From: Candidatus Gallipaludibacter merdavium
GTDB taxonomy: Bacteria > Bacteroidota > Bacteroidia > Bacteroidales > Paludibacteraceae
Length of the DNA stretch: 64,000 bases
Reading direction: 5' to 3'
Assembly: GCA_017694875.1 (NCBI GenBank)
Contig: JADIMG010000084.1
Location: forward strand, 2,663 to 66,662
Position 1 is the stretch's first letter. Each line of letters opens with the position of its first letter. Positions 1-12,913 of this stretch are shown here, in pieces. The position numbers and the translations under genes are program-made. The notes beneath the pieces were generated by a model. That model was given only the letters and a program-made list of their open reading frames with translations, was not told where the DNA came from and did not search any database.

Positions 1-1821
1 CAGTCGCAAGGCATCATTTTCCCCAACATTCTGCCACCCAATGAATTGGAATATGTGATGGATGCCGATACCAGCAACCGCTTTTACGAAACGCTGAAAC
101 AACTGACCGACGGCAAGTCTGACAACAATCCCGAAGGGCAAGGCCTCCATTACGCCCGCTACCGTGCCGTGGAATTTCTGAAGCCGGAACACCGCCACAA
201 ATACAGGAATGCTGTCCATATCGGCCAGACACTGGCTGGCATCTATCGTGTGCACATGGTCAAGCGGCTGGAGAGCAGTTTCTACGCCTTCAAAAAGTCA
301 CTCCAAACCCTCCTCCGCATCACCACAGATATGATTAAGATGTTCGATGAAAACAAGGTAATCATTGCTCCCGACCTGAAGGTAAAAGACCTACAGGTCA
401 AAAACATGGAGCTTGACGAAATCATCGAATATGCCCTTGCAAAAGGATATGTTGCCGAAGACATACTTTTTACCGCCGATGCCTTCACACCCGACTTCCT
501 CCAGATGCTCCACCACGACCGCATCATTCTGGAACAGCTCAATGCAGAATGGGAACAGGAAACCAAAGACCCCAAATTCGACAAGTTCCGGGAAAACCTG
601 ACCCAAAACTTTTTCAACAAGGACATCAATCCCTCAGGCAAACTGGTGCTATTCTCCGAAAGTGTTGACACACTCCACTATCTGTACGAACGGCTGACCC
701 GCGATATAGGGCGTCGTGATGTGCTGATGGTAACAGCCGCCAACAGAAACCGCTTGACGCAAACCATCAAGGAAAATTTCGATGCCAACTTCGGCAGCGC
801 TTCCATGCACTACAACATCATCATCACTTCCGATGTTTTGGCAGAGGGTGTAAACCTCCACCGTTCCAATGTGATTGTCAATTATGATTCGCCTTGGAAT
901 GCTACCCGGCTGATGCAGCGCATTGGGCGTGTCAACCGTATCGGCTCCCTCGCTCCCAACATCTACAACTATATGTTCTACCCGTCAAAGCAAGGCGACA
1001 AGGAAATCCAGCTCTACAAGAATGCCCTTGTCAAGTTGCAGGGCTTCCATTCCGCATTTGGCGAAGACGCACAAATCTACTCCAGAGAGGAAATAGTAAA
1101 AGAGTTTCAGATGTTCGACAGCAACGTAAAGGACAGCATCGACAAGAAGATTGCCCTGTTGCGTGAAGTGCGCGAACTCTACAACCACGACCGCAAGCTC
1201 TATCACAAAATCAAGGCTCTGCCTATGAAAAGCCGTGTCATGCGCCACACGGGCAAACACAGCGGCAAGTCCGTCATATTCGTTTCATCTTCCGTAAAGA
1301 CAGAGTTCTATCTGGCTAATTCTAAAGGCATAGAAGTGATTGATTTCCTTGAGGCGGTCAAATACCTCAAAGCCCAACCCGAAGAACAGCCCGTCCCCTT
1401 CAGCAATGAAGAGCAACACTACAGACATGTCAACAGCGCCTTGGCCCGATATACCGCAGAATATGTGGAAGCGGCAGATACCTCCTCCATCAACCGTACC
1501 GACCTTGACAAGATTTCACTGGAGGCCAACAAGTTTCTGCGCACCATCAAGCAGATATGCGCCGACAGCGAACTCAAAACGCAATGCGACGTGCTGATAG
1601 GATATATCAACGAAGGCATCTATGCCCAGCTCCCCCGCTATCTGAAAACCCTGTCGCGCGAGTACAGGAACAACCGCACCAAAATCAAGCAGGACGAATA
1701 CCTTTTGCAAAACAAGATATCCGAACTGCTGGATGAATATCAGACCATGAACAGGGAGCAACGCCACGAAGCTCATGACATTTCCAACCCACAAATCATC
1801 ATTTCCGAATCATTCAAATAG
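1..1821 (+). CDS. SF2/SNF2-type helicase, C-terminal part (5' end lies upstream of the window)
   Basis: Frame 1 is open from nt 1, with no stop before the listed ATG at 46, so the gene is cut by the window edge. Helicase C-terminal motifs are present: LVLFSESVDTLHYL, IIITSDVLAEGVNLH and QRIGRVNRIG (motif VI, QxxGRxxR). The stop lies 8 nt before the methyltransferase start. Confidence 0.75.
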   Translation, partial: QSQGIIFPNILPPNELEYVMDADTSNRFYETLKQLTDGKSDNNPEGQGLHYARYRAVEFLKPEHRHKYRNAVHIGQTLAGIYRVHMVKRLESSFYAFKKSLQTLLRITTDMIKMFDENKVIIAPDLKVKDLQVKNMELDEIIEYALAKGYVAEDILFTADAFTPDFLQMLHHDRIILEQLNAEWEQETKDPKFDKFRENLTQNFFNKDINPSGKLVLFSESVDTLHYLYERLTRDIGRRDVLMVTAANRNRLTQTIKENFDANFGSASMHYNIIITSDVLAEGVNLHRSNVIVNYDSPWNATRLMQRIGRVNRIGSLAPNIYNYMFYPSKQGDKEIQLYKNALVKLQGFHSAFGEDAQIYSREEIVKEFQMFDSNVKDSIDKKIALLREVRELYNHDRKLYHKIKALPMKSRVMRHTGKHSGKSVIFVSSSVKTEFYLANSKGIEVIDFLEAVKYLKAQPEEQPVPFSNEEQHYRHVNSALARYTAEYVEAADTSSINRTDLDKISLEANKFLRTIKQICADSELKTQCDVLIGYINEGIYAQLPRYLKTLSREYRNNRTKIKQDEYLLQNKISELLDEYQTMNREQRHEAHDISNPQIIISESFK

Positions 1822-1829
1822 ACACCGCT

Positions 1830-4800
1830 ATGGCCACCACATACACATCCGACAGCATGAGACAGCTCTTCCAATCACCCTTCCACCTAACTGATTGGTA
1901 CTCGTTCCTGCAACACTTTCTCAACGCCACCGAATTGAAAGCCACTCCAGAAAAAATCATTGGCAGCCACACCGACAACGGCTACTATTTAGGATGCATT
2001 GACACCACCGACAGCTATCGCATAGGTCTGTTTCATTATCCTATTGCCCATGGCTCTGTTGTCAATAAGCGTGTAGGCCTCCGCAACCTTGTCAAGTCGT
2101 TTATCAACCCCACATGGGGTGAATTCGATGCCGCACTGGTAGTGTTCGATAGCGGCGACCATTGGCGCCTGTCGTTTATTTGCGACATCAAAGGCGAAGC
2201 CACATCACCCAAACGATATACATACGTTTTCGGTAGTCATGAACTGCTCTACAAAACCCCTATCGAACGTTTCCGTTTCTTGCAGAATAAGGGCATATCA
2301 TTTGAAAATCTGAAAACCGCCTTCTCAGTCGAAGCCCTCTCCGACGAGTTTTTCGACAAATATCGTGAACAATATGCCGACTTCATCCAATATGTTACGG
2401 GGAAACGTTTTGTCAAGGTGGGCAACAAGTGGCAGGAAAAAGTACTCGGAAGTCCCAACGCCTCACTCATGCGTGCATTCGGCCATAACGAGAAAAAGAT
2501 TCGTGACTATGTAAAGAAGATGATGGGACGCATCACATTCCTCCACTTCCTGCAACGCAAAGGATGGATGTGTGGCGACCTCAACTACATGCAAAACCTA
2601 TTTGAACACTCCCCCTACCAGCACAATTTTCTTGATGCCGTGCTCGAACCACTGTTTTTCGGCATACTGAACACCCCACCCGCCCAACGTTCAGCCTTGT
2701 TTGCCGATTATGGTTGGGACTCCTCCTTGCTTCATGAATGGCAAGATATCCCCTATCTCAATGGCGGTCTGTTTGAGCGTGACGAGGAAGACGAACCCGA
2801 AAGCCGTTTTCCTGCCGAATATTTCAAGCGTCTGTTCCAGTTTTTCAGTGAATACAATTTCACCATCGACGAAAACGACCCCAATGACGCAGAAATAGGC
2901 GTTGACCCCGAAATGCTAGGTAAAATCTTTGAAAACCTGCTGGAAGACAATAAGGACAAAGGCGCATTCTACACCCCCAAAGAGATAGTGCGCTACATGT
3001 GCCAGGAGTCGCTCATTGCCTATCTGGAAACCAACACTTCCATTACCAGCGAGAAACTCAGGAAATTTGTCCTCTCCCCCGAAGATGGAGCCGCCTATAT
3101 CCCCGACAGCCAGAAAGCCCGTCTGCTTCGCGCACTGGAAGAAGTCAAGATTTGCGACCCAGCCATCGGCTCCGGCGCATTTCCCATGGGCTTGCTGAAC
3201 GAACTGCTCCATTGTCGTGAAGCGTTGAACGGCGAGCACAACAACCGTGCAGAAATAAAAAAAAGCATCATACAAAACAATATCTATGGAGTTGACATAG
3301 AAAAAGGCGCTGTTGACATTGCGCGCCTGCGCTTTTGGCTTTCTATTGTTGTGGACGAAGAAACACCCGCTCCACTGCCCAACTTTGACTATAAGATTAT
3401 GCAAGGCAATTCGCTTATAGAGAGCTTTAAGGGCGTCGATTTGAGCCAACTCACTTACGAGAAGAGCAGTAAAAAAGACTATCGCCAACCCTTGATTTTT
3501 GATGACGAGAAAAACCGCCTGCAAAAAACCGTTTCACATCTGCTGTCCACCTATTATTCCTGCTCAGACCACGACAGAAAGATGAAACTGCAACAGGAAA
3601 TTGCCAACACCATCAAAAAACAACTGACTGTACAATCCTACGACTCTGCTATTCTACAAGAACTCCAAACCATTAATCTTGCCGAAAACGACCAGTTCTT
3701 CCTGTGGCATACTTGGTTCAGTGACGTGTTCAGTCGCGAAGATGGTAAAAATGGCTTTGATATTGTTATCGGGAATCCGCCATATTTCTTATATCAAGAA
3801 TCTCATATTGGAGAAATTAGTAACCTGCGTCGTGATAAGGACTATACTATTGCATTTGGAGGAAAATTAAATGCATATAAACTTTTTATCGCAAATGCAA
3901 TTATGAAATTATTAGCTTCAAATGGAATAAATTGCTTTATCTTTCAAAATTCATTTTTGGGAGATCGACAGGCTACTAATTTAAGAAAGTATATTCTTAG
4001 AAATAAAAAAATTATCAAGATTGATTCATTCCCTGAACGAGATAGTAAAAAAAAGCGAGTTTTTGAAAGTGTAAAAATGAGTGTGTGCATATCCTTAATA
4101 CAAAATACCAAAGTAGATAGTAATTATATCTTCCCCATACATATATGGGATGATAAATATAAATCTTCTGGATTAAATACATCTTTTTCTCTAAATGATA
4201 TTATTGCTATTGATAGTGTTGATTATACGATTCCACGTTTACGCCCAGAATACAAAACTATCGTAATAAAATTGTTGAAAAAGAAAGAAGTCACTCTTAA
4301 ATGTATTGAGGGAGAATTGAATGTAACCTTCCATAAGAAATATTTTGGTTCCAATGTGGTGAACCCTATCATTCTGAAAGGTGCTTCTATTCAACGATAT
4401 CATTATACATTTCAAATGAGTCAAGGTCAAATTGACTATCTTGAAGAAGATAAATATTTATCAGAATATGGCACAACTGATAAATCTACCCATCATAAAT
4501 TTGAAAGAATTGCTATGCAAGGAATGACAGGTGCAAATGACAAAATTAGACTTATAATGTCTATTGTACCTCAAGGATATTATTTGGCAAATTCGTGCAA
4601 TTATATACTGCCATCACAATCAACAGATCTATATTGTTTATTGGGATTCCTTAACTCTAAAACCATAAATTGGTTTTTTAGATGTTTCAGTACTAATAGT
4701 AATGTCAATGGCTATGAGGTTGATAATTTCCCTATTCCACAGTTGTCCCCAAATGCTCAAGCGACGATTTCAGAATTGGTTAAAAAGGTTATTGATGCAA

Positions 4801-4907
4801 AAACAAACAGCTCAACTGATACTTCTGCAATAGAAAAGCAAATTGATGAGCTTGTTTATCAAGCTTATGAATTATCAAAAGATGATATAAAAATCATTGA
4901 ACAATAA
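1830..4907 (+). CDS. Eco57I/type IIG-like N6-adenine DNA methyltransferase with C-terminal specificity region (1025 aa)
   Basis: SAM-binding motif I CDPAIGSGAFPMG (about nt 3150-3190). Catalytic motif IV VIGNPPYF (about nt 3766-3789). A long N-terminal extension and a roughly 370-aa C-terminal region resemble TaqI-C-like target recognition domains. Tightly linked to the upstream helicase. Confidence 0.8.
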   Translation: MATTYTSDSMRQLFQSPFHLTDWYSFLQHFLNATELKATPEKIIGSHTDNGYYLGCIDTTDSYRIGLFHYPIAHGSVVNKRVGLRNLVKSFINPTWGEFDAALVVFDSGDHWRLSFICDIKGEATSPKRYTYVFGSHELLYKTPIERFRFLQNKGISFENLKTAFSVEALSDEFFDKYREQYADFIQYVTGKRFVKVGNKWQEKVLGSPNASLMRAFGHNEKKIRDYVKKMMGRITFLHFLQRKGWMCGDLNYMQNLFEHSPYQHNFLDAVLEPLFFGILNTPPAQRSALFADYGWDSSLLHEWQDIPYLNGGLFERDEEDEPESRFPAEYFKRLFQFFSEYNFTIDENDPNDAEIGVDPEMLGKIFENLLEDNKDKGAFYTPKEIVRYMCQESLIAYLETNTSITSEKLRKFVLSPEDGAAYIPDSQKARLLRALEEVKICDPAIGSGAFPMGLLNELLHCREALNGEHNNRAEIKKSIIQNNIYGVDIEKGAVDIARLRFWLSIVVDEETPAPLPNFDYKIMQGNSLIESFKGVDLSQLTYEKSSKKDYRQPLIFDDEKNRLQKTVSHLLSTYYSCSDHDRKMKLQQEIANTIKKQLTVQSYDSAILQELQTINLAENDQFFLWHTWFSDVFSREDGKNGFDIVIGNPPYFLYQESHIGEISNLRRDKDYTIAFGGKLNAYKLFIANAIMKLLASNGINCFIFQNSFLGDRQATNLRKYILRNKKIIKIDSFPERDSKKKRVFESVKMSVCISLIQNTKVDSNYIFPIHIWDDKYKSSGLNTSFSLNDIIAIDSVDYTIPRLRPEYKTIVIKLLKKKEVTLKCIEGELNVTFHKKYFGSNVVNPIILKGASIQRYHYTFQMSQGQIDYLEEDKYLSEYGTTDKSTHHKFERIAMQGMTGANDKIRLIMSIVPQGYYLANSCNYILPSQSTDLYCLLGFLNSKTINWFFRCFSTNSNVNGYEVDNFPIPQLSPNAQATISELVKKVIDAKTNSSTDTSAIEKQIDELVYQAYELSKDDIKIIEQ

Positions 4908-4917
4908 TTTAAATAGT

Positions 4918-4957
4918 AAAAGAGCGACCTGATTTCTCAAGGTCGCTCTTTCGTTTT
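4918..4957. terminator. Bidirectional rho-independent terminator shared by the convergent methyltransferase and repeat-protein genes
   Basis: Perfect 11-bp stem aaagagcgacc (4918-4928) / ggtcgctcttt (4941-4951) with a 12-nt loop. T-rich sequence follows on both strands. It sits exactly between the two stop codons (4907 and 4956). Confidence 0.7.
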
Positions 4958-5381
4958 AATATGTGTAATCTATGAATCCTATACTAATTAGATAGTCTGC
5001 AATATCATTCATATTCCTTTTCTGTAGTTCTTTAATTAAAATATGTGGTGGAGGCCAATTACTCATATATGGGTTACTACATGGACCTGTGTAAAGTCCA
5101 CCACCGGGACCTGTGTAAAGTCCACCACCGGGACCTGTGTAAAGTCCACCACCGGGACCTGTGTAAAGTCCACCACCGGGACCTGTGTAAAGTCCACCAC
5201 CGGGACCTGTATAAAGTCCACCACCAGGACCTGTGTAAAGTCCACCACCAGGACCTGTGTAAAGTCCACCACCAGGACCTGTGTAAAGTCCACCACCGGG
5301 ACCTATGTAAAGTCCACCACCAGGACCTGTGTAAAGTCCACCACCGGGACCTATGTATCTATCTCTTGGCCATTTGTTCAT
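4956..5381 (-). CDS. Glycine-rich repeat protein: 10-aa N-terminus, 11 x GPGGGLY(T/I), 43-aa unique C-terminal domain
   Basis: The start lies 6 nt after the stop of the upstream minus-strand gene, and the terminator hairpin directly follows the stop. Of the three kinds of repeat-unit variant, two are synonymous only in this frame (Pro ccc/cct, Tyr tac/tat) and one is T->I. This supports this frame over the five other open frames. Confidence 0.7.
   Translation of the reverse strand: MNKWPRDRYIGPGGGLYTGPGGGLYIGPGGGLYTGPGGGLYTGPGGGLYTGPGGGLYTGPGGGLYTGPGGGLYTGPGGGLYTGPGGGLYTGPGGGLYTGPCSNPYMSNWPPPHILIKELQKRNMNDIADYLISIGFIDYTY
5082..5357 (-). repeat. Tandem 24-bp repeat, 11 full units plus partial units at both ends (+ strand unit tgtgtaaagtccaccaccgggacc)
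   Basis: Read directly: contiguous 24-nt units from 5088 to 5351 with only 1-2 substitutions per unit. There are no spacers, so it is not CRISPR-like. The unit length is divisible by 3, so copy-number change keeps the frame. Confidence 0.95.
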
Positions 5382-5387
5382 ATCCTA

Positions 5388-6086
5388 TCACTTATGAAGT
5401 TCTTTTCTATCTATCCAAAAAGCATTATCTGGCTTTATTATTAGAATATCAACAGGACCTCCAACCGTCTTCGTCCGCTGTTGAAATTTCATTGTATCTA
5501 TAGTGGTTTGAATTGCATATTTTGCAAAATCAATAGCATCTTGTATTGTAAAATGATTAAATGGGATAGGATAATCTGTTAAAGCATTACCACTCTGCGT
5601 ATACATTGTAGTCAATACTCTACTAAGTACATCTATTTCACCATCCCATATTGCTCCTTGAATATCTGTATCAATAGATTCTATTTTATCTATAGCGGTA
5701 AAAATTCTATATAATTTTTGTTCATATGTTTTTCCTGTGTTTATATAACCTCCAATGATAAAATCTGTATCTATTGTTTGGCATAATGCTTTGAAATATG
5801 GAATTATTTCATCTTTAATTTCATCAACACATCCATCTTTATGTTCATTGATAAAACTTTCTATATAACCTGCGATGGGTTTGTTGTTGATACTTGCTTG
5901 ACCACATGCCGAAATACCAACTCCCTTTGGAGTTAGGAATGTCTTATATGAAGAATCACTATAATGAACTCCGTTATTTTGGACTATTGTTCCATCTTGC
6001 TTATGAATAGTAGCATTGAATGTTGTTCTACTATCACTGGCCATAACAATACCTTCGCCTAAATGTAAAGCAATAATTAACGACAT
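5388..6086 (-). CDS. Proteasome beta / HslV-like Ntn-hydrolase family peptidase (232 aa)
   Basis: The N-terminus M-SLIIALHLGEGIVMASDSRTT aligns by eye with HslV [22 protein letters not shown] and with the proteasome beta TTIVG...G.V.A.D motif. Ser2 sits at the nucleophile position, with no propeptide. Later IIGGY and GGPVDILIIKPD segments fit the proteasome fold pattern. Confidence 0.55.
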   Translation of the reverse strand: MSLIIALHLGEGIVMASDSRTTFNATIHKQDGTIVQNNGVHYSDSSYKTFLTPKGVGISACGQASINNKPIAGYIESFINEHKDGCVDEIKDEIIPYFKALCQTIDTDFIIGGYINTGKTYEQKLYRIFTAIDKIESIDTDIQGAIWDGEIDVLSRVLTTMYTQSGNALTDYPIPFNHFTIQDAIDFAKYAIQTTIDTMKFQQRTKTVGGPVDILIIKPDNAFWIDRKELHK

Positions 6087-6118
6087 GCTATTTTAATAAT
6101 TTATAACTATTAAAAAAA

Positions 6119-7120
6119 TTATCTTTTGTCAATATCAATTTTTGTGATTTCATGCGAATCTACTCTTATACATTTTGCAGAACAATCATCAAACAATACA
6201 TAATTACGACCTCCTTTATGCAAAGAACTCTCAAAGCTTATTCCATCAGCCCCAACAATCCGTTTACAATATTCACAAATTAACTGAGTCGGGACATATT
6301 CTAATTCGGAATCATATCTACGAAGAGGTTTGGAAAGATCTTCACTTATGGCATCTATTATTTTTTTCTTGATGACGATTTCCTTCAGCGATGTAGTATC
6401 ATCATTATATACCAAGAATAAATTCACATCGTAAATAAAATCAACAAGTTCTAATTCACGTTCTATCCTAAATGTACCAACACTTAATTTATCTAAATAG
6501 ACTGCACGTACTTCGAAATAAGTCGTTTTTGCTGAATCACTTAAATATAAATAAGGTATTCCTATCGGGTTTGCACGACCTGCTGTTGCCAGTTCTTTAG
6601 GAGGGCACCCCATTTTATCACATTTAATTTTCTTTTGACCAACGGGTGTTATACGAGAACGATATAATTTTTGACCAACATGTAAACTCTTACCTGCTGT
6701 CAGATAATTATACTGAGCAAATTCATCCATATTGGTGAAGAAGCGGGATTTTTCTTTTACACTAGTTTTAAGTCTATCCCAAACTGCAACACGAATGCAA
6801 ATATCATCAGTGTAATCTACGAAATCAGCTATTGAGTAATCAAGATTATTTGCCTGAATAACATCAGCTAATAAAACCATTGCAACGTCTTTATCTTTAA
6901 AGAAATGCCACTCGTTCTGAATAATGTCAACGATTGTTTTATTACTATTCACTGTTGGAGAATACAATTCCAGTAAGGTAGTAAAAAATCCATAAAACTC
7001 AGAAAAATCCATAACTTTTCCTTTTCCTCCACACACTGCACAAACCCCATCACTACTACCATTTACACTAACCTCAGAACGCAATTCCTCATCATGGAAA
7101 CAATCTTTACAAATATACAT
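6119..7120 (-). CDS. RES-domain protein with N-terminal CxxC...CxxC zinc-ribbon domain (HEPN/RES-NTD1-like)
   Basis: The N-terminus is MYICKDCFHDE...GVCAVCGG, with four Cys at positions 4, 7, 27 and 30. RES signature: AGRANPIGIPYLYLSDSAKTTYFEVRA carries the Arg and Glu, and DGISFESSLHKGGRNYVLFD carries the Ser. Confidence 0.7.
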   Translation of the reverse strand: MYICKDCFHDEELRSEVSVNGSSDGVCAVCGGKGKVMDFSEFYGFFTTLLELYSPTVNSNKTIVDIIQNEWHFFKDKDVAMVLLADVIQANNLDYSIADFVDYTDDICIRVAVWDRLKTSVKEKSRFFTNMDEFAQYNYLTAGKSLHVGQKLYRSRITPVGQKKIKCDKMGCPPKELATAGRANPIGIPYLYLSDSAKTTYFEVRAVYLDKLSVGTFRIERELELVDFIYDVNLFLVYNDDTTSLKEIVIKKKIIDAISEDLSKPLRRYDSELEYVPTQLICEYCKRIVGADGISFESSLHKGGRNYVLFDDCSAKCIRVDSHEITKIDIDKR

Positions 7121-7131
7121 ACACTACATTG

Positions 7132-8076
7132 TTATAATGAAAGGATTAATTCCAAATGATTTTTAACTGACAACTTCTTCAAATACCCTAGACCTGGATA
7201 ACCATCAGGATTTTCCGCTTTTGCTATTATCTCACAAACTGCTGCTGTCTTATCTTTCTCTTTATAAAACAAAACAACCTTTCTTGCAGCTTCTCGAAAT
7301 TTTCCTCGAATATCACTATTCGTCTCGTTACTATCTGAAACAAAATGATGAACATATAACTGCTCCTCATTCTTTTTATACGAGAGATGAATAACTAAAG
7401 CGTACGGCAACATACCTCCTTCTATATATTCAGACGGCAATGTTGTATAATCTGAATAACCATCCAATTTGCCTTCATCTGCATAGAAAAATGGTTCTTC
7501 TGAAAACAACTCGTCTTCATTATACGCATAATCAGCATTACGTACCCTTGGTTTAAAACAATCATCCAATCGGATAATCTGTTTTCCTGTTTCCTTCAAT
7601 TGACTTCTCAATCTTCTTGAAATAGTAGATCCGAAAGAATTGACAATATATTCAACAGACTCATTATTGAGTATTTCCCATGCATCTTCATCATCAATAT
7701 CTATACAAGTACGAAAAATAATCATAACATGCTCAAGCTCATATTTATCAATCATTGAAGATATCTCATGAGCATTACTTTTAGAATAAAGAAAAGCAGG
7801 AATCCAGTCTTCCTTATTTGTCATTAATTTATCGTGTTGATACCATGCATCAAAATGAACTGTAGGATGTTTAAAATCTCCATCTTTCGGATTTAAAATA
7901 AGTGCAAATTTCAGTCTATTATGCATCATCTCATCTATCGCTAAAATCAATGCATTAGGTTGTTGTTTTACAGGTTCCAAGATAGGCGTTATAATTTTTT
8001 GCTCACTATGTTCTGCTGAGAACTCCCTTAAGGCCTTGAGCTCATATTGTTTTGCACGAAGATATGGATAATACAT
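7132..8076 (-). CDS. Beta-protein family (PF14350-like) / sce7725-family protein
   Basis: The N-terminus MYYPYLRAKQYELKALREF matches the characteristic start of Beta_protein/sce7725 family members as I recall it. It lies 3 nt downstream of its usual partner family (sce7726-like). Confidence 0.6.
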   Translation of the reverse strand: MYYPYLRAKQYELKALREFSAEHSEQKIITPILEPVKQQPNALILAIDEMMHNRLKFALILNPKDGDFKHPTVHFDAWYQHDKLMTNKEDWIPAFLYSKSNAHEISSMIDKYELEHVMIIFRTCIDIDDEDAWEILNNESVEYIVNSFGSTISRRLRSQLKETGKQIIRLDDCFKPRVRNADYAYNEDELFSEEPFFYADEGKLDGYSDYTTLPSEYIEGGMLPYALVIHLSYKKNEEQLYVHHFVSDSNETNSDIRGKFREAARKVVLFYKEKDKTAAVCEIIAKAENPDGYPGLGYLKKLSVKNHLELILSL

Positions 8077-8079
8077 AAT

Positions 8080-8955
8080 CTACTCTTGATTTATATTAAT
8101 ATTTAGTTGTTCCAATAACTTATTCGCTTTATCAGCTGATAAATTCAAACTCAACATCATTTGTCTAATCGGCATAGGATATTTTCGCAATAAAGATGTA
8201 TTGTTTTTACGCTTCTTTACTTCACACAAGAAAAGTTCCCTTAACTTACCTGAATCTGCTTGTAAAATAACATTGTAACAGAATTTATACATATCATAGC
8301 CATTCACTCCATCCAAAGAAATGCCTAATGATAATACTATATTCTTATATTCATCTGTTCTAAGGCAAGACATTAATGCTCTAGGATCAAAACGTTCATT
8401 ATGATGCGCAGACCTAACATCTTTAAGCACAATATGGCCATTATTCCAACTCATGGCTATAATACCAATTGTTGAATCTATAATATTGCAATACTCTTCT
8501 AATCTATTTTCTGGAACAACAATATAACATTTATCAAAAAAACACTTATAGTTTTCCATTTGTTTATCTAATCTACGAGGAGTATCATACTCGGTTTTTA
8601 TTTCAAACGCTTTACTTTCACCATTAAACATGACCATGTCAGCAATAGAATTTCCAACTTTGAATTCACTATAAAATACCGAGTTTCTTGTACCATACTT
8701 CTTAAGAAGAAGCTTTATCAACTCATTCTTATATACATACTCACATCTATAGTCTTTTGAGATTAAAGAATATGACTTTTTAAGTAAATCAAAATACGTA
8801 ACACATTTCAATGTGTTATATTTTGATACTAACCAATTAAAATGGGAATAATCATTGTAATTCAGAACATCTACAAATGCACTACGCGAAAAAGCAGAAG
8901 ATAAATCTCTCAGTCTAATCAACTCACTATTTATATTTGTAGTTGCCATAAACAA
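8080..8955 (-). CDS. sce7726-family protein, predicted PD-(D/E)xK nuclease fold
   Basis: The D...ExK motif is readable in SIADMVMFNGESKAFEIKTEYD. Size (291 aa) and pairing with a Beta-protein gene fit the sce7725/sce7726 gene pair. It is the first gene of the operon. Confidence 0.6.
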   Translation of the reverse strand: MFMATTNINSELIRLRDLSSAFSRSAFVDVLNYNDYSHFNWLVSKYNTLKCVTYFDLLKKSYSLISKDYRCEYVYKNELIKLLLKKYGTRNSVFYSEFKVGNSIADMVMFNGESKAFEIKTEYDTPRRLDKQMENYKCFFDKCYIVVPENRLEEYCNIIDSTIGIIAMSWNNGHIVLKDVRSAHHNERFDPRALMSCLRTDEYKNIVLSLGISLDGVNGYDMYKFCYNVILQADSGKLRELFLCEVKKRKNNTSLLRKYPMPIRQMMLSLNLSADKANKLLEQLNININQE

Positions 8956-8973
8956 TACCCCCTATTAATATTG

Positions 8974-8981
8974 CAAAAGTA
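8974..8981 (-). promoter_or_regulatory. Bacteroidetes sigma-AB-type -7 box (TACTTTTG on the minus strand) for the five-gene operon
   Basis: The reverse complement of 8974-8981 is tacttttg, which matches TAnnTTTG. It lies about 20 nt upstream of the ATG at 8955. Confidence 0.5.
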
Positions 8982-9077: not shown

Positions 9078-10277
9078 TCATGTACCCCTTTTAACAACTC
9101 CCTCACACAATCCCATTCTTCCCCTAAAAACAATTCCCCTACTCCCATACAACTTATTTATCCACATGGCAAATAGCCTGTCCGTTACAGAGAACACCTT
9201 GTTGATTTCCGTGATAAGGTCTTTTTCAAGTAGCTTTTTGGCAGCCGATTGTACCGAACTGGCAGAAGTGAGGCTATGGCGCCTGATAAATTCCGACGAG
9301 GTAATACGTTCCGCTTCACCATCCTTGGCAATGGCATAAAGCAATTCTTTTTGCTTTTCGGGAATGTTTGAAAGTATTTCACGGAAAATAGTATCGTTCG
9401 ATGCTATCATATTATCTATGGCTGTCTGTATGGTCTCCAGCGTGCATTCATCTCCTTCGGGGGTATCAGCAAAAGATTCATTGAACGTCTTTTGAATGTA
9501 ATAGGTGTGTCCTTGAAAGAGTGCGTAAACCTTTTCCACATCCGATTCAGCTATCGTGCGGTTGCGTTGCTTGAAATGACGGACAACGAAAGGCACATAG
9601 ATTTCTGCGGGTATGGCTTTCAGTTCCAGCATATCGGCACTATGGTAGAACGGGCGGGCAGACGACACAAACATCTCCTGCATCATGTGACGCTCACTGC
9701 CGGCAAAAATAAAATGACTATTATCCAAACGCCGTATATGGGTTCGCAACAATGCCTCAATGTTATTTTCTGGGTATTTGGCAATCTGCTGAAATTCGTC
9801 GATAGCAACAATGCAAGGCTTGTCGGCATGCGCCAAGTATTGGAAAATCTCATCAAGCGTATATTCGGGACGCTCAATATCTCCCAATTCAACATTAAAG
9901 GTTGGAAGTTGGGTAATGGGGTCAAATCCAAATTTCCCGCTAATGGATTTTATGGTCTGAATAAAGAGTGTCGCCATTTTACGGCTACGGGGCAGGAGTG
10001 TTTCGTATATTTCCCGCCCAAGCAAATATGTAAATTCCCGCAGGCTTGACGTATGCAGAATATCTATAAAGAAAGTGTAGTATGCTTTATTGATTTCTGG
10101 TTTGTCATAGCAAAACTGAATCAGACCGGTTTTACCCATACGACGAGGGGAAATAATGACCATATTATTTCCGTTGGTAATCGACTTGATAAGCCGTGCA
10201 GATTCACTTACACGGTCACAAAAATATTCCGGTGCAATCTTTCCGGTTACTACGAATGGATTTATTGTTTTTGCCAT
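9078..10277 (-). CDS. AAA-type ATP-binding protein (Arch_ATPase + DUF234-like)
   Basis: Walker A IISPRRMGKTGL and Walker B CIVAIDEFQ. The N-terminus NPFVVTGKIAPEYFCDR is typical of this Bacteroidales ATPase family. The C-terminus resembles a winged helix. Confidence 0.7.
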   Translation of the reverse strand: MAKTINPFVVTGKIAPEYFCDRVSESARLIKSITNGNNMVIISPRRMGKTGLIQFCYDKPEINKAYYTFFIDILHTSSLREFTYLLGREIYETLLPRSRKMATLFIQTIKSISGKFGFDPITQLPTFNVELGDIERPEYTLDEIFQYLAHADKPCIVAIDEFQQIAKYPENNIEALLRTHIRRLDNSHFIFAGSERHMMQEMFVSSARPFYHSADMLELKAIPAEIYVPFVVRHFKQRNRTIAESDVEKVYALFQGHTYYIQKTFNESFADTPEGDECTLETIQTAIDNMIASNDTIFREILSNIPEKQKELLYAIAKDGEAERITSSEFIRRHSLTSASSVQSAAKKLLEKDLITEINKVFSVTDRLFAMWINKLYGSRGIVFRGRMGLCEGVVKRGT

Positions 10278-10753
10278 GCGAACATCAGTTTATGCAAAGA
10301 TGATTATTTTATTTGAATTATGCAAATCGAATGATTTCAAACAAAACAAAGTTCTTCGTTCAAATCACTTGCATGATATTCCCGTTTGGCAACCCCGCTA
10401 TTGTTGAAAGTATCTGTTTGCCCCTCTCCATCTTATCAGCATCCTCCACCCTTTTCACTACACGTTGCAAACAGAAAAAAGAATTTGCATATCCACCTTG
10501 AATTTTCATATCAAACTCATGTTCTTTTAAAGTCTTATTCCTATATTTGCAAATATTTAAACGCAAAGACATTCTATGAGTATCAACAAGCACCACAATT
10601 GTATACAAAAAAATCATGTAAAAAACAATAACAGAGGGAGTCACAAGCACGCCCATACTCAGGAATAAAGTTTGCAAGAACGTTTTGGTGATAAAAGTAA
10701 GGATATTAACAAACGATAGAAGCAGATTTGGTATATAAAAAGTAATTGAAGCA

Positions 10754-11485
10754 ATGAATAAATATAACAAACAATTAAACAATTGCATACAGACCATTGA
10801 GCGTATTAGTAACATGATTAATTTGCAACACATTTCAAGTGAAGAAATTAGTTATAATGAGCTTTATAATGATCTATATCAATTGATATCGCTTATACCA
10901 CAAGAATATCATATTTTTCGAGATCGACTAAGAGACAATATTTTGCCAAATTTAAAAATACCAGACCAAGTAACAAAAGCCAGAAATGGACAACTATTTG
11001 TTACCCCAAGAAATGGTATCAATCCTTATTCATTTGGTGAGGTTATTGCAACTATTGCATATCTAAAAGGTAATGGTAACAACAACTCCCCATCAATTTG
11101 GGACAATATCCACCCACAAATTAGCATGGTTGCTAAAAGTCGTTATGATAATGGGCATTATGCTGATGCAGTAGAAGCGGCATTCAAGGAAGTAAACACC
11201 CGAGTTAAAAACATATATAAAATTAGAACGTCAATTGAAAAGGATGGTGCCAAATTAATGCAAGCTGCATTTTCAGTTCATAATCCAGTTATTAAGATCG
11301 GAGATCTTTCAACAGAAACTGGTATTAACATTCAACAAGGATATATGGAAATGTTTGCAGGAGCAATGATAGGGATTAGAAATCCTAAAGCACATTGCAA
11401 CCAAACAATCTCAAAAGCAGACGCAACTAGAAAATTACATTTTGCCAGCATGCTAATGTACAAACTAAATGATGAAATTATTTAA
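10754..11485 (+). CDS. HEPN-domain protein of the Ymh/TIGR02391 type
   Basis: C-terminal HEPN Rx4-6H motif in GAMIGIRNPKAHCNQ. The gene is AT-rich and located in the defence-gene neighbourhood. Confidence 0.6.
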   Translation: MNKYNKQLNNCIQTIERISNMINLQHISSEEISYNELYNDLYQLISLIPQEYHIFRDRLRDNILPNLKIPDQVTKARNGQLFVTPRNGINPYSFGEVIATIAYLKGNGNNNSPSIWDNIHPQISMVAKSRYDNGHYADAVEAAFKEVNTRVKNIYKIRTSIEKDGAKLMQAAFSVHNPVIKIGDLSTETGINIQQGYMEMFAGAMIGIRNPKAHCNQTISKADATRKLHFASMLMYKLNDEII

Positions 11486-11536
11486 CCACCTTAATTGAAT
11501 ATCTTCAAAGAAAAAACCACGATTACATCTTTCAAT

Positions 11537-12913
11537 ATGACAGAAAACAACCGCATAGAATTTAAAAGAGAACTGACTAACGAACTTGATATAGAAAAAG
11601 AGATTGTGGCATTCCTTAATTACAAGGAAGGGGGATATATCTACATTGGCATTGACAATGACGGAAGGACCATAGGAGTAAACGACGTGGATGACTGTAT
11701 GCTGAAATTGAAAGAACGTATCAAACACAATATATCTCCTTCTGCAATGGGTCTGTTTGATATTGCAGAGGAACAAAAAGACGGACATAGCATTATCAAG
11801 GTTACAGTAGCAAGCGGTATTGAGAAACCATATTTCAAAACAAGATATGGAATGACGCCACGAGGTGCATATATGCGGATTGGGACATCGGCTGAACCTA
11901 TGCCGCAAGAACAGATTGACCGTCTGTTTGCTATGCGGACACGTAATTCCATTGGTCGAATAGTGTCAAACCGACAGGATTTGAGTTTTGAACAGTTGCG
12001 TATCTATTACGATGAACGAGGAAAAAGGCTCAACGACAATTTCAAACGAACATTGGAATTGCTTACTGAAGATGGGAAATACAATTATGTAGCCTATCTT
12101 CTGGCTGACGAGAACGGAAATTCTATCAAAGTGGCAAAGTATTCAAGTCTAGACCGCTGTGATTTGGTGGAGAACAACGAATACGGATATTGTTCTCTCA
12201 TAAAAGCGACCAAGAGTGTGTTGGCCAAACTGGATATAGAAAACAAAGTTGCCGCCACCATTACATCTATGGAGCGCATTGAAACCCCTTTGTGGAACAA
12301 GGTTGCTTTGCGCGAAGCGGTTATCAATGCGATTGTACATAACGATTACTCCTTTGAAGTGCCACCCAAATTTGAAATATTTCCCGACAGACTGGAGATA
12401 ACTTCAGCAGGACGTTTGCCGGAATCCCTCTCCAAAGAGGAATTTTTCAATGGTATATCAATTCCACGCAACAAGGAGCTGATGAGAATTTATCGCGATT
12501 TGGAACTGGTAGAATCGTTAGGCTCTGGCATCCCTCGTATTCTGAAAGCCTATGGCGAAGAATGCTTCAAATTTACCGACAATTTTATCCGCATTACTTT
12601 TCCTATTACTGCTCATGATACTAACAGTGACCATGCAAGTGACCATGCAAGTGACCATGCAAGTGACCATGCAAGCACACAAGTAAGAAAGCTCATTTCT
12701 ATTCTTGCCGGAGAGAAAGGGCGTTCAGAACTACAAGAATTGTTGTCGATTAAAAATAGAGATTATTTTAGAACTGATTATTTACTCCCTGCAATTAATA
12801 ACGGCTATATAGAGCCAACTGTGCCTGATAAGCCCAATAGTCAAAACCAGAAATATCGCCTTACTGCAAAAGGTTTAGCATTGAAGGAGAGTTTGAAGAA
12901 TAGCAAACAGTGA
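11537..12913 (+). CDS. AlbA_2 (Schlafen-like) DNA-binding domain + HATPase_c_4-like domain + C-terminal wHTH protein (often mislabelled RecG-like)
   Basis: NNRIEFKREL...IVAFLNYKEGGYIYIGIDNDGRTIGV is the AlbA_2 signature. ALREAVINAIVHNDYS is the HATPase_c_4-like signature. The ORF-track start at 11495 is a TTG; the first ATG (MTENNRIEFK) is at 11537. Confidence 0.7.
   Translation: MTENNRIEFKRELTNELDIEKEIVAFLNYKEGGYIYIGIDNDGRTIGVNDVDDCMLKLKERIKHNISPSAMGLFDIAEEQKDGHSIIKVTVASGIEKPYFKTRYGMTPRGAYMRIGTSAEPMPQEQIDRLFAMRTRNSIGRIVSNRQDLSFEQLRIYYDERGKRLNDNFKRTLELLTEDGKYNYVAYLLADENGNSIKVAKYSSLDRCDLVENNEYGYCSLIKATKSVLAKLDIENKVAATITSMERIETPLWNKVALREAVINAIVHNDYSFEVPPKFEIFPDRLEITSAGRLPESLSKEEFFNGISIPRNKELMRIYRDLELVESLGSGIPRILKAYGEECFKFTDNFIRITFPITAHDTNSDHASDHASDHASDHASTQVRKLISILAGEKGRSELQELLSIKNRDYFRTDYLLPAINNGYIEPTVPDKPNSQNQKYRLTAKGLALKESLKNSKQ
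12626..12673 (+). repeat. Perfect 4 x 12-bp tandem repeat (agtgaccatgca) encoding (SDHA)4 in a linker
   Basis: Read directly from the sequence. It is in frame inside the AlbA_2 protein gene. Confidence 0.95.

Follow-up and report, generated by a model that had tools for sequence, protein, structure and literature searches.

A RES-bearing triad with homology to Gop-beta-cII and a proteasome-like hydrolase with an octapeptide-repeat partner: probably two cassettes within one five-gene block of Candidatus Gallipaludibacter merdavium

Five co-oriented genes lie tightly packed on the minus strand of a 64,000-nt stretch of DNA from a metagenome-assembled genome of Candidatus Gallipaludibacter merdavium (contig JADIMG010000084.1; the whole stretch is called the window here), and the question they raised was whether they work together as a single defence system. 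This had been the proposal of the first-pass annotation of this DNA, in which the products, here named g1 to g5 in the order of transcription, were read as a PD-(D/E)xK protein, a Beta-like protein, a Zn-ribbon-RES protein, a proteasome-like hydrolase and an octapeptide-repeat protein. The identities of the individual proteins were borne out; the single system was not. Our answer, to which we give a probability of about 60%, is that the block is made of two independently mobile cassettes that became neighbours by recombination in one lineage of gut Bacteroidales: cassette A (g1-g3) would be a RES-bearing relative of the Gop-beta-cII system, of the abortive-infection type, and cassette B (g4-g5) a separate module.

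The first piece of evidence came from the distribution of the genes. A genome collection was scanned with a g2 profile, which yielded 80 loci, and these were then searched with g1 to g5 by tblastn. The order cII-like, beta-like and RES-like was present in almost every locus with room for it, with g2 identities of 31-82% and hosts among the Bacteroidota, Clostridia, Actinomycetota (Nesterenkonia), Gastranaerophilales and Ignavibacteria, and annotated Moraxella and Rhizobium plasmids carry the same triad as sce7726, sce7725 and "RES family NAD+ phosphorylase" genes. The gaps inside the triad ranged from -19 to +21 nt, with two outliers (-35 and -100), and its outer neighbours varied in size, strand and distance. 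Of the 80 loci, about 75 were devoid of g4 and g5, which accompanied the triad only in the closest clade, formed by the window and the loci L016-19 and L025, whose g3 proteins are 94% identical. In L020-23 and L026, where g3 is 87% identical, the place of g4-g5 after the triad is taken by a gene for ~970 residues, with a weak NACHT match in Pfam in L020-22; before the triad, L020-23 have a tyrosine integrase and a gene for 129 residues. A different situation was met in L028, where a 120-nt remnant of g4 (9974-10093; 40 residues, 80% identical) follows the 74%-identical RES gene of an intact triad, which indicates that cassette B was lost there and the triad retained.

Cassette B was also found on its own. 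In L009 and L105 a g4 homologue (at least 67% identity) is followed by a g5 orthologue, and there is no triad. Where g4 homologues reach at least 67% identity, they are followed by g5 orthologues of 6-11 repeat units, and the contigs L010-13 and L104, like many short metagenome contigs, break off inside the g5 repeat, in these five cases after a g4 homologue. The g4 family as a whole is mostly solo and was never located beside g1-g3 in 85 further loci; its more distant homologues are solo genes, and their settings include the space between hsdM and hsdS, the vicinity of Fic and methylase genes or of Gabija, and metabolic neighbourhoods. At the DNA level, the homology of the window to the triad-only loci L020 and L026 ends at 6102 and 6118, respectively, and that to L009, which has only g4 and g5, starts at 6086. 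The break thus falls exactly between g3 and g4, at the 32-nt A+T-rich spacer (6087-6118, minus strand) that makes up the junction of the two cassettes. Comparison with L016 showed that the segment from 6913 to 4517 is 93-99% identical and covers most of g3, g4, g5, the closing hairpin and, beyond it, the final ~390 nt of the methylase gene, while g1, g2 and the start of g3 are 76-81% identical and the flanks 71-84%. This segment, of ~2.4 kb, looks like a recent recombination tract carrying g4-g5.

What, then, is cassette A? Its first gene, g1 (8080-8955, minus strand), encodes 289-291 residues, depending on whether translation begins at the TTG at 8955 or, as is probable, at the ATG at 8949, which is the start of the 289-residue NCBI product. 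The protein, named sce7726 family at NCBI, exceeded the cut-off of the NCBIfam sce7726_fam model (9.7e-49; 165.8 bits, cut-off 70) and matched the PADLOC "cll" model (1.5e-23). The first-pass annotation had pointed to a gop-beta-cII type locus of a phage or satellite, and the link, to satellite phage P4, was correct: P4 cII is 27% identical to g1 by BLASTP (E 1e-18) and is itself annotated as a sce7726 family protein in RefSeq. Residues D106, E118 and K120 are invariant in 72 of 72 homologues and the motif is common to P4 cII, so the D..ExK signature fits a PD-(D/E)xK active site, although a profile search of the PDB with g1 found no relative.

The second gene, g2 (7132-8076, minus strand; 314 residues), is adjacent to g1, only 3 nt apart, and both members of this sce7725/sce7726 pair (NF033831/NF033832) scored above their curated cut-offs, g2 with 264.6 bits for sce7725_fam (1.5e-78; cut-off 60), in agreement with its NCBI name. 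Its Beta-like character, also anticipated, turned out to be that of a distant relative: the Pfam Beta_protein family (PF14350) aligned with residues 2-52 only and gave 25.3 bits for a cut-off of 27, while the same family is precomputed on many close g2 homologues. An N-terminal YYPxLRx(K/R)xxE motif is common to g2 and the beta-superfamily protein of P4. The AlphaFold2 (AF2) model of g2 (mean predicted local distance difference test score, pLDDT, 82.3) produced by Foldseek weak, generic TIM-barrel matches (E at least 2e-3, template modelling (TM) scores 0.3-0.45), with an uncharacterised Gordonia phage protein as the best viral match. None of these was a specific structural match, and they pointed to no specific enzymatic function.

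The third gene, g3 (6119-7120, minus strand; 333 residues), is named RES family NAD+ phosphorylase at NCBI and matched Pfam RES (PF08808) with 49.4 bits (6.5e-13; cut-off 23.2). Both the Zn ribbon and the RES domain expected from the earlier reading were confirmed, and a helical HEPN/RES-NTD1 domain was found between them. Among 34 diverse homologues, RES was recognised in all 34 and HEPN_RES_NTD1 (PF18870) in 10, with a best value of 3.3e-8. In the CxxC...CxxC ribbon, the cysteines C7 and C27 never vary, and at least 90% of the homologues keep C4 and C30; in the RES domain, R182, E203 and S298 are invariant in the 34 proteins. RES enzymes either consume NAD+, by degradation or phosphorolysis, or ADP-ribosylate their targets (PMC9503650), and g3 is the presumed toxin, or effector, of cassette A. 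Sequence and profile searches of the PDB with g1, g2 and g3 found no relatives, RES structures included. The architecture formed by a Zn ribbon, HEPN/RES-NTD1 and RES is listed among the toxins of conflict systems by Anantharaman et al. (2013; PMC3710099), and g3 reproduces it exactly; the part of that survey which lists it does not describe sce7726/sce7725 partners.

These homologies made a comparison with characterised systems possible. Gop-beta-cII protects E. coli from lambda and P1, and its Gop component is toxic if beta is missing (PMC9122126). The toxicity is triggered by the phage gene orf184 (bioRxiv 10.1101/2023.04.06.535777). Since this validated anti-phage system contains a sce7726-family cII, the earlier statement that sce7725/sce7726 have no assigned function is outdated at the system level. 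Like Gop-beta-cII (Rst_gop_beta_cll in DefenseFinder, gop_beta_cll in PADLOC), the triad has a cII/sce7726 (PF26915) homologue and three genes, one of them a toxin (presumably g3), and is a mobile, AT-rich accessory locus. However, where P4 has Gop, of 133 residues, the triad has a 333-residue Zn-ribbon/NTD1/RES enzyme, and g2 belongs to a separate sce7725 family, unlike P4 beta, reaching neither the Beta_protein cut-off nor the PADLOC beta model. In addition, the triad is spread over many phyla, whereas a 2024 survey reported Rst_gop_beta_cll from Proteobacteria only. As judged from the genes it carries, the locus is not a Gop-beta-cII system, as it has no Gop, misses the beta model and differs in gene order, yet it shares homologous parts with it.

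A second comparison was with the RES-Xre toxin-antitoxin (TA) systems (MbcTA, ParST and the Pseudomonas and Photorhabdus RES-Xre pairs). These have, as g3 does, a RES domain with the conserved R, E and S, and the presumed action is likewise on NAD+, by phosphorolysis or hydrolysis, or ADP-ribosylation. In contrast, their Xre antitoxin has no counterpart at the locus, where the partners of RES are a TIM-barrel-like and a PD-(D/E)xK protein; as had been supposed, no Xre-type antitoxin is present, and no helix-turn-helix family of Pfam was found in g1, g2, g4 or g5. Moreover, the RES domain of g3 lies C-terminal to the Zn ribbon and HEPN/RES-NTD1, unlike in the RES-Xre toxins. For want of an Xre antitoxin, the gene content places the locus outside the RES-Xre group too, a homologous part again being shared. 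A beta-like component is present, as in the triad, in PD-lambda-2 (a HigB-like protein, an Xre-peptidase and the beta-like PD-lambda-2C), where PD-lambda-2C is needed for defence and not for toxin neutralisation (PMC9519451). Here, g2 gave a marginal N-terminal match to the PADLOC PD-Lambda-2_C model (E 0.0086), and the A (HigB-like) and B (Xre-peptidase) models of PD-lambda-2 matched nothing at the locus. Beyond cll, PADLOC gave no system-level match, and the five-gene combination, as first thought, corresponded to no named system there. Searches of the literature on RES with a beta protein, and on proteasome-like proteins in defence, brought nothing specific, and those of PHROGs returned families of unknown function only.

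The best reading of the sequence homologies is therefore that cassette A is a distant Gop-beta-cII relative with RES in place of the small Gop toxin. Beta-like genes are partnered with Gop in P4, with RES here, with a GNAT protein in an E. faecium plasmid and with HigB/Xre-peptidase in PD-lambda-2. This association with unrelated toxins leads us to infer a toxin-agnostic sensor or regulator in the cII-like/beta-like pair, with RES as its effector. In such a scheme, RES would act by NAD+ phosphorolysis, by hydrolysis of NAD+ or by ADP-ribosylation; in the uninfected cell, the beta-like and/or the cII-like partner would keep it silent; a phage product or phage DNA would lift this block, and the ensuing loss of NAD+ would arrest the infected cell, resulting in abortive infection. 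The layout, the homologies, the conservation and the modularity are direct observations; toxicity, the identity of the neutralising partner, the trigger and any part played by cassette B are inferences. The E. faecium case deserves a brief description. In plasmid p114-2 (L204, 3306-5513), a sce7725 family gene is succeeded, where RES would be, by one for a GNAT N-acetyltransferase, a possible effector swap. The 229-residue hypothetical protein encoded before the sce7725 gene showed no detectable similarity to g1 (E 0.098) and could not be accepted as its homologue.

In cassette B, g4 (5388-6086, minus strand; 232 residues) is a hypothetical protein at NCBI. Its AF2 model (pLDDT 91.9) and the subsequent Foldseek comparison agreed with the proteasome-like N-terminal nucleophile (Ntn) fold proposed for it: the top matches in the PDB were Anbu (5nyj) and 20S beta subunits (probability 1.00, E ~1e-8, TM 0.55-0.65). 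In 86 aligned homologues, Met is always first and is followed by Ser in 85 and by Thr in one, and D18 and K48 are invariant; among more distant representatives, 65 of 72 begin with MS or MT, and the distance from there to an SDSR motif is fixed. These residues are in the register of the proteasomal Thr1, Asp17 and Lys33, with Ser2 as the presumed nucleophile. No family of Pfam or NCBIfam passed its threshold with g4, the proteasome family PF00227 giving 14.3 bits (22.4 required) over residues 4-31 only, and yet the g4 family comprises 1,866 clusters at 50% identity. Anbu, BPH, HslV and the 20S beta subunits share with g4 the alpha-beta-beta-alpha Ntn fold, the position of the nucleophile and the equivalents of Asp17 and Lys33. 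What sets g4 apart is Ser, not Thr, as the usual presumed nucleophile, the lack of a propeptide and an insertion of ~14 residues before the Lys; it also occurs as a lone accessory gene whose contexts change, without HslU or the partners of the Anbu operon, and a subclade of it is paired with an octapeptide-repeat protein. A search of annotated plasmids and phages with g4 gave no match, and a phage origin was rejected, as only 5 of 20 viral-contig matches were near full length.

That repeat protein is g5 (4956-5381, minus strand; 141 residues), which has no entry in the NCBI protein collection. As had been noticed, it is an octapeptide-repeat protein: it contains 11 copies of GPGGGLYT, and Tandem Repeats Finder (TRF) described the array (5083-5357) as 11.5 copies of a 24-nt unit with 96% matches. 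The array is preceded by a conserved N-terminal NKWPRDRY motif and followed by a conserved C-terminal domain of ~45 residues. The number of units varies from 6 to 11 across loci (the window, L009, L019 and L105), while the peptide unit is unchanged. Within the arrays, 48 codon differences are synonymous and 3 nonsynonymous, and between loci the unit differs at up to 8 of its 24 nt without any amino-acid change. By this measure, the octapeptide is under strong purifying selection, and g5 is accordingly plausible as a substrate or regulator of g4. The possibility that the repeat acts at the DNA level was discarded, as all the arrays are in frame and the differences overwhelmingly synonymous. According to the best reading of model and alignments, g4 comes from a large and uncharacterised family of proteasome-like hydrolases that stand alone and have Ser or Thr at the N-terminus, and in a Bacteroidales subclade g5 is most simply its substrate or its regulator.

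Two further observations concern the surroundings of g4 homologues. In L004-L006, a homologue with 50% identity (about 7001-7777 in L004) is inserted between hsdM and hsdS of a type I restriction-modification operon, a position that recalls embedded abortive-infection genes such as prrC. In L011-L013, and likewise in two metagenome loci, g4 homologues lie directly 3' of a gene for an AAA_14/DUF4143 ATPase, and the flanking genes of this type in the two metagenome loci match the PADLOC candidate PDC-S01.

Several of these results weigh against the interpretation of the block as two cassettes, one of them related to Gop-beta-cII. The link between g2 and P4 beta is weak: besides the Pfam score below the cut-off, the alignment of two g2 profiles with P4 beta by hhalign gave an E value of 5e-4 at a probability of 30%, and the PADLOC beta model did not match g2. 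The PADLOC gop model matched none of the five proteins. The gene order differs as well, being cII, beta and toxin on one strand in the triad and gop-beta with a convergent cII in P4. Some 20 residues of g2, mostly polar, are invariant down to 28-30% identity, which points to an enzyme more than to a simple binding antitoxin, and neither a name nor an experimental test of the triad was found in the literature or in PADLOC v2. Regarding the separation of the cassettes, only 32 nt and no terminator lie between g3 and g4-g5, and six of the sampled loci (L016-19, L025 and the window) preserve this arrangement, of which L028 has a remnant; for these reasons, g4-g5 may be functionally coupled to the triad in this lineage. 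Finally, housekeeping genes make up most of what surrounds the triad in 31 loci, so guilt by association with defence is modest, and the heterogeneous neighbourhoods of the g4 family make even a defence role for cassette B uncertain.

The alternatives must be judged on the same evidence. A single integrated defence system, in which g4 would process g5 or the RES protein and so gate the depletion of NAD+, finds its arguments in the layout: the genes are co-oriented, the g3-g4 spacer has 32 nt and no hairpin, a single promoter-like box precedes and a single terminator-like hairpin closes the block, and the five-gene arrangement recurs in L016-19 and L025 with differing upstream contexts. These loci, however, all belong to one close clade, and they stand against some 75 of 80 triads without g4 and g5, g4-g5 pairs without a triad, a g4 family that is mostly solo and absent from the vicinity of g1-g3 in the 85 further loci, homology breakpoints exactly at the g3-g4 boundary and a locus, L028, that kept the triad and lost g4. 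On balance, we consider an integrated system very unlikely. Nothing was found in support of proteolytic gating, and since the protease is missing from nearly all RES cassettes, such gating is improbable as a general mechanism. A more far-reaching proposal is that g4 would found an undescribed branch of stand-alone bacterial proteasome homologues with Ser1 as nucleophile and, in gut Bacteroidales, cut g5, as a precursor of 6-11 identical octapeptide cores, into numerous 8-mers (e.g. TGPGGGLY) that serve as a signal or toxin in conflicts with phages or between bacteria; in parallel, the cII-like/beta-like pair would be a toxin-agnostic infection sensor open to wiring with Gop, RES or GNAT. The combination is decidedly doubtful.

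Cassette A might also be a three-component toxin-antitoxin or addiction module that stabilises mobile elements or islets and is not primarily directed at phages. RES proteins are classical TA toxins (Skjerning et al., 2019, cited in PMC9503650), the original description of Gop/beta was of a pair resembling a toxin and antitoxin (PMC9122126), the triad is found on plasmids and beside integrases, and many of its chromosomal copies are small islets among housekeeping genes. Nevertheless, the nearest characterised relatives, Gop-beta-cII and PD-lambda-2, protect against phages, and the Xre-type DNA-binding antitoxin expected of a RES module is missing; besides, addiction and anti-phage roles are not mutually exclusive. 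We regard a primarily stabilising role as unlikely. Still less can be said for a signalling or modification system, in which g2 would be an enzyme acting on nucleic acid or on a molecule derived from NAD+ or ADP-ribose, g1 the effector nuclease and RES the source of the signal or the modifier of a target, not a killer through NAD+ depletion. The ~20 invariant, mostly polar residues of the TIM-barrel-like g2 model and the invariant catalytic D..ExK of g1 would suit it, and RES and other enzymes of the ADP-ribosyltransferase superfamily can make ADP-ribose derivatives (PMC9503650). But unrelated toxins (Gop, GNAT) occur with the same beta-like/cII-like chassis, which speaks against a chemistry specific to RES products, and g2 has no specific structural match, so this option appears highly improbable. 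We therefore retain the reading of two cassettes, with cassette A as the RES-bearing relative of Gop-beta-cII.

The organisation of the block itself was as first described, the five co-oriented genes (4956-8955) being separated by gaps of 3, 11, 32 and 6 nt, and they are probably co-transcribed. Upstream of g1, a candidate Bacteroidota-type -7 promoter box of the form TAnnTTTG (TACTTTTG; 8974-8981, minus strand) is indeed present ~25 nt 5' of the g1 ATG. The pattern itself occurs in the window at chance frequency, 70 times for 69.6 expected, so that this box is supported by its position only and is not statistically significant; the upstream region, up to 9008, is conserved with the three-gene loci L020 and L026. 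At the other end, the terminator-like hairpin (4918-4952, given on the minus strand), followed by UUUUACUAUUU, lies between g5 and the convergent methylase gene and is common to both. It proved to be a real structure, with a stem of 12-13 bp and a folding energy of -22.1 kcal/mol (z = -6.0), and none of 200 shuffled sequences folded equally well. A simple terminator scan did not report it, probably because of its longer loop; given the strength of the fold and the limits of the scan in loop sizes, no meaning was attached to this miss. No hairpin was visible in the g3-g4 spacer.

The block had been described as having about 30% G+C, less than its flanks. The five genes do average ~30%: g1-g4 are AT-rich (0.295-0.335) within flanks mostly of 0.40-0.50, and g5 has a value of 0.465, due to its Gly/Pro repeat. 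Furthermore, the AT-rich tract is wider than the operon, since it takes in the 3' half of the methylase gene (3501-4907, 0.325) and a HEPN gene on the other side (0.325).

The context of a defence island, also invoked at the outset, was confirmed for the flanks of the window; among the 31 triad loci, restriction-modification, integrase and candidate defence genes are a minority pattern. On one side (46-4907) are the C-terminus of an SNF2-type helicase, whose gene is truncated at the start of the window, and an Eco57I/N6_Mtase/TaqI_C methylase. The full-length counterpart of the helicase in L016-L019 also has a PLD domain, and the helicase matches HmaA and DrmD of PADLOC. The helicase and methylase pair stays beside the five-gene block in L016-19, while the opposite flank differs. 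The methylase gene (1830-4907) passes from 47.9% G+C in its 5' half to 32.5% from ~3500, the kind of switch that a swapped target-recognition half would show. On the other side (9078-12913), three more candidate defence genes encode an ATPase_2/AAA_14 protein, the HEPN (Hypoth_Ymh) protein, which matches PADLOC PD-Lambda-3_B (1.8e-12), and an AlbA_2/HATPase_c_4/Fic-like_C protein, whose gene has a perfect 12-nt repeat of 4.2 copies (12626-12675) encoding (DHAS)x4.

What is new here, in sum, is a RES-bearing triad without a name, stacked on a cassette built from an undescribed proteasome-like family. Gop-beta-cII is a validated anti-phage system whose mechanism is not known and which was thought to be confined to Proteobacteria. 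Its cII-like/beta-like core recurs in Bacteroidota, Bacillota, Actinomycetota, Pseudomonadota and other lineages, coupled there to a RES effector that presumably acts on NAD+ and is biochemically tractable, and so offers a handle on infection sensing and toxin control. This suggests a reusable sensor chassis with swappable toxins. The g4 family, with ~1,900 clusters at 50% identity and no Pfam or NCBIfam model, would add a stand-alone homologue to the bacterial proteasomes, and its strictly conserved octapeptide-repeat partner, g5, is an obvious candidate for its substrate.

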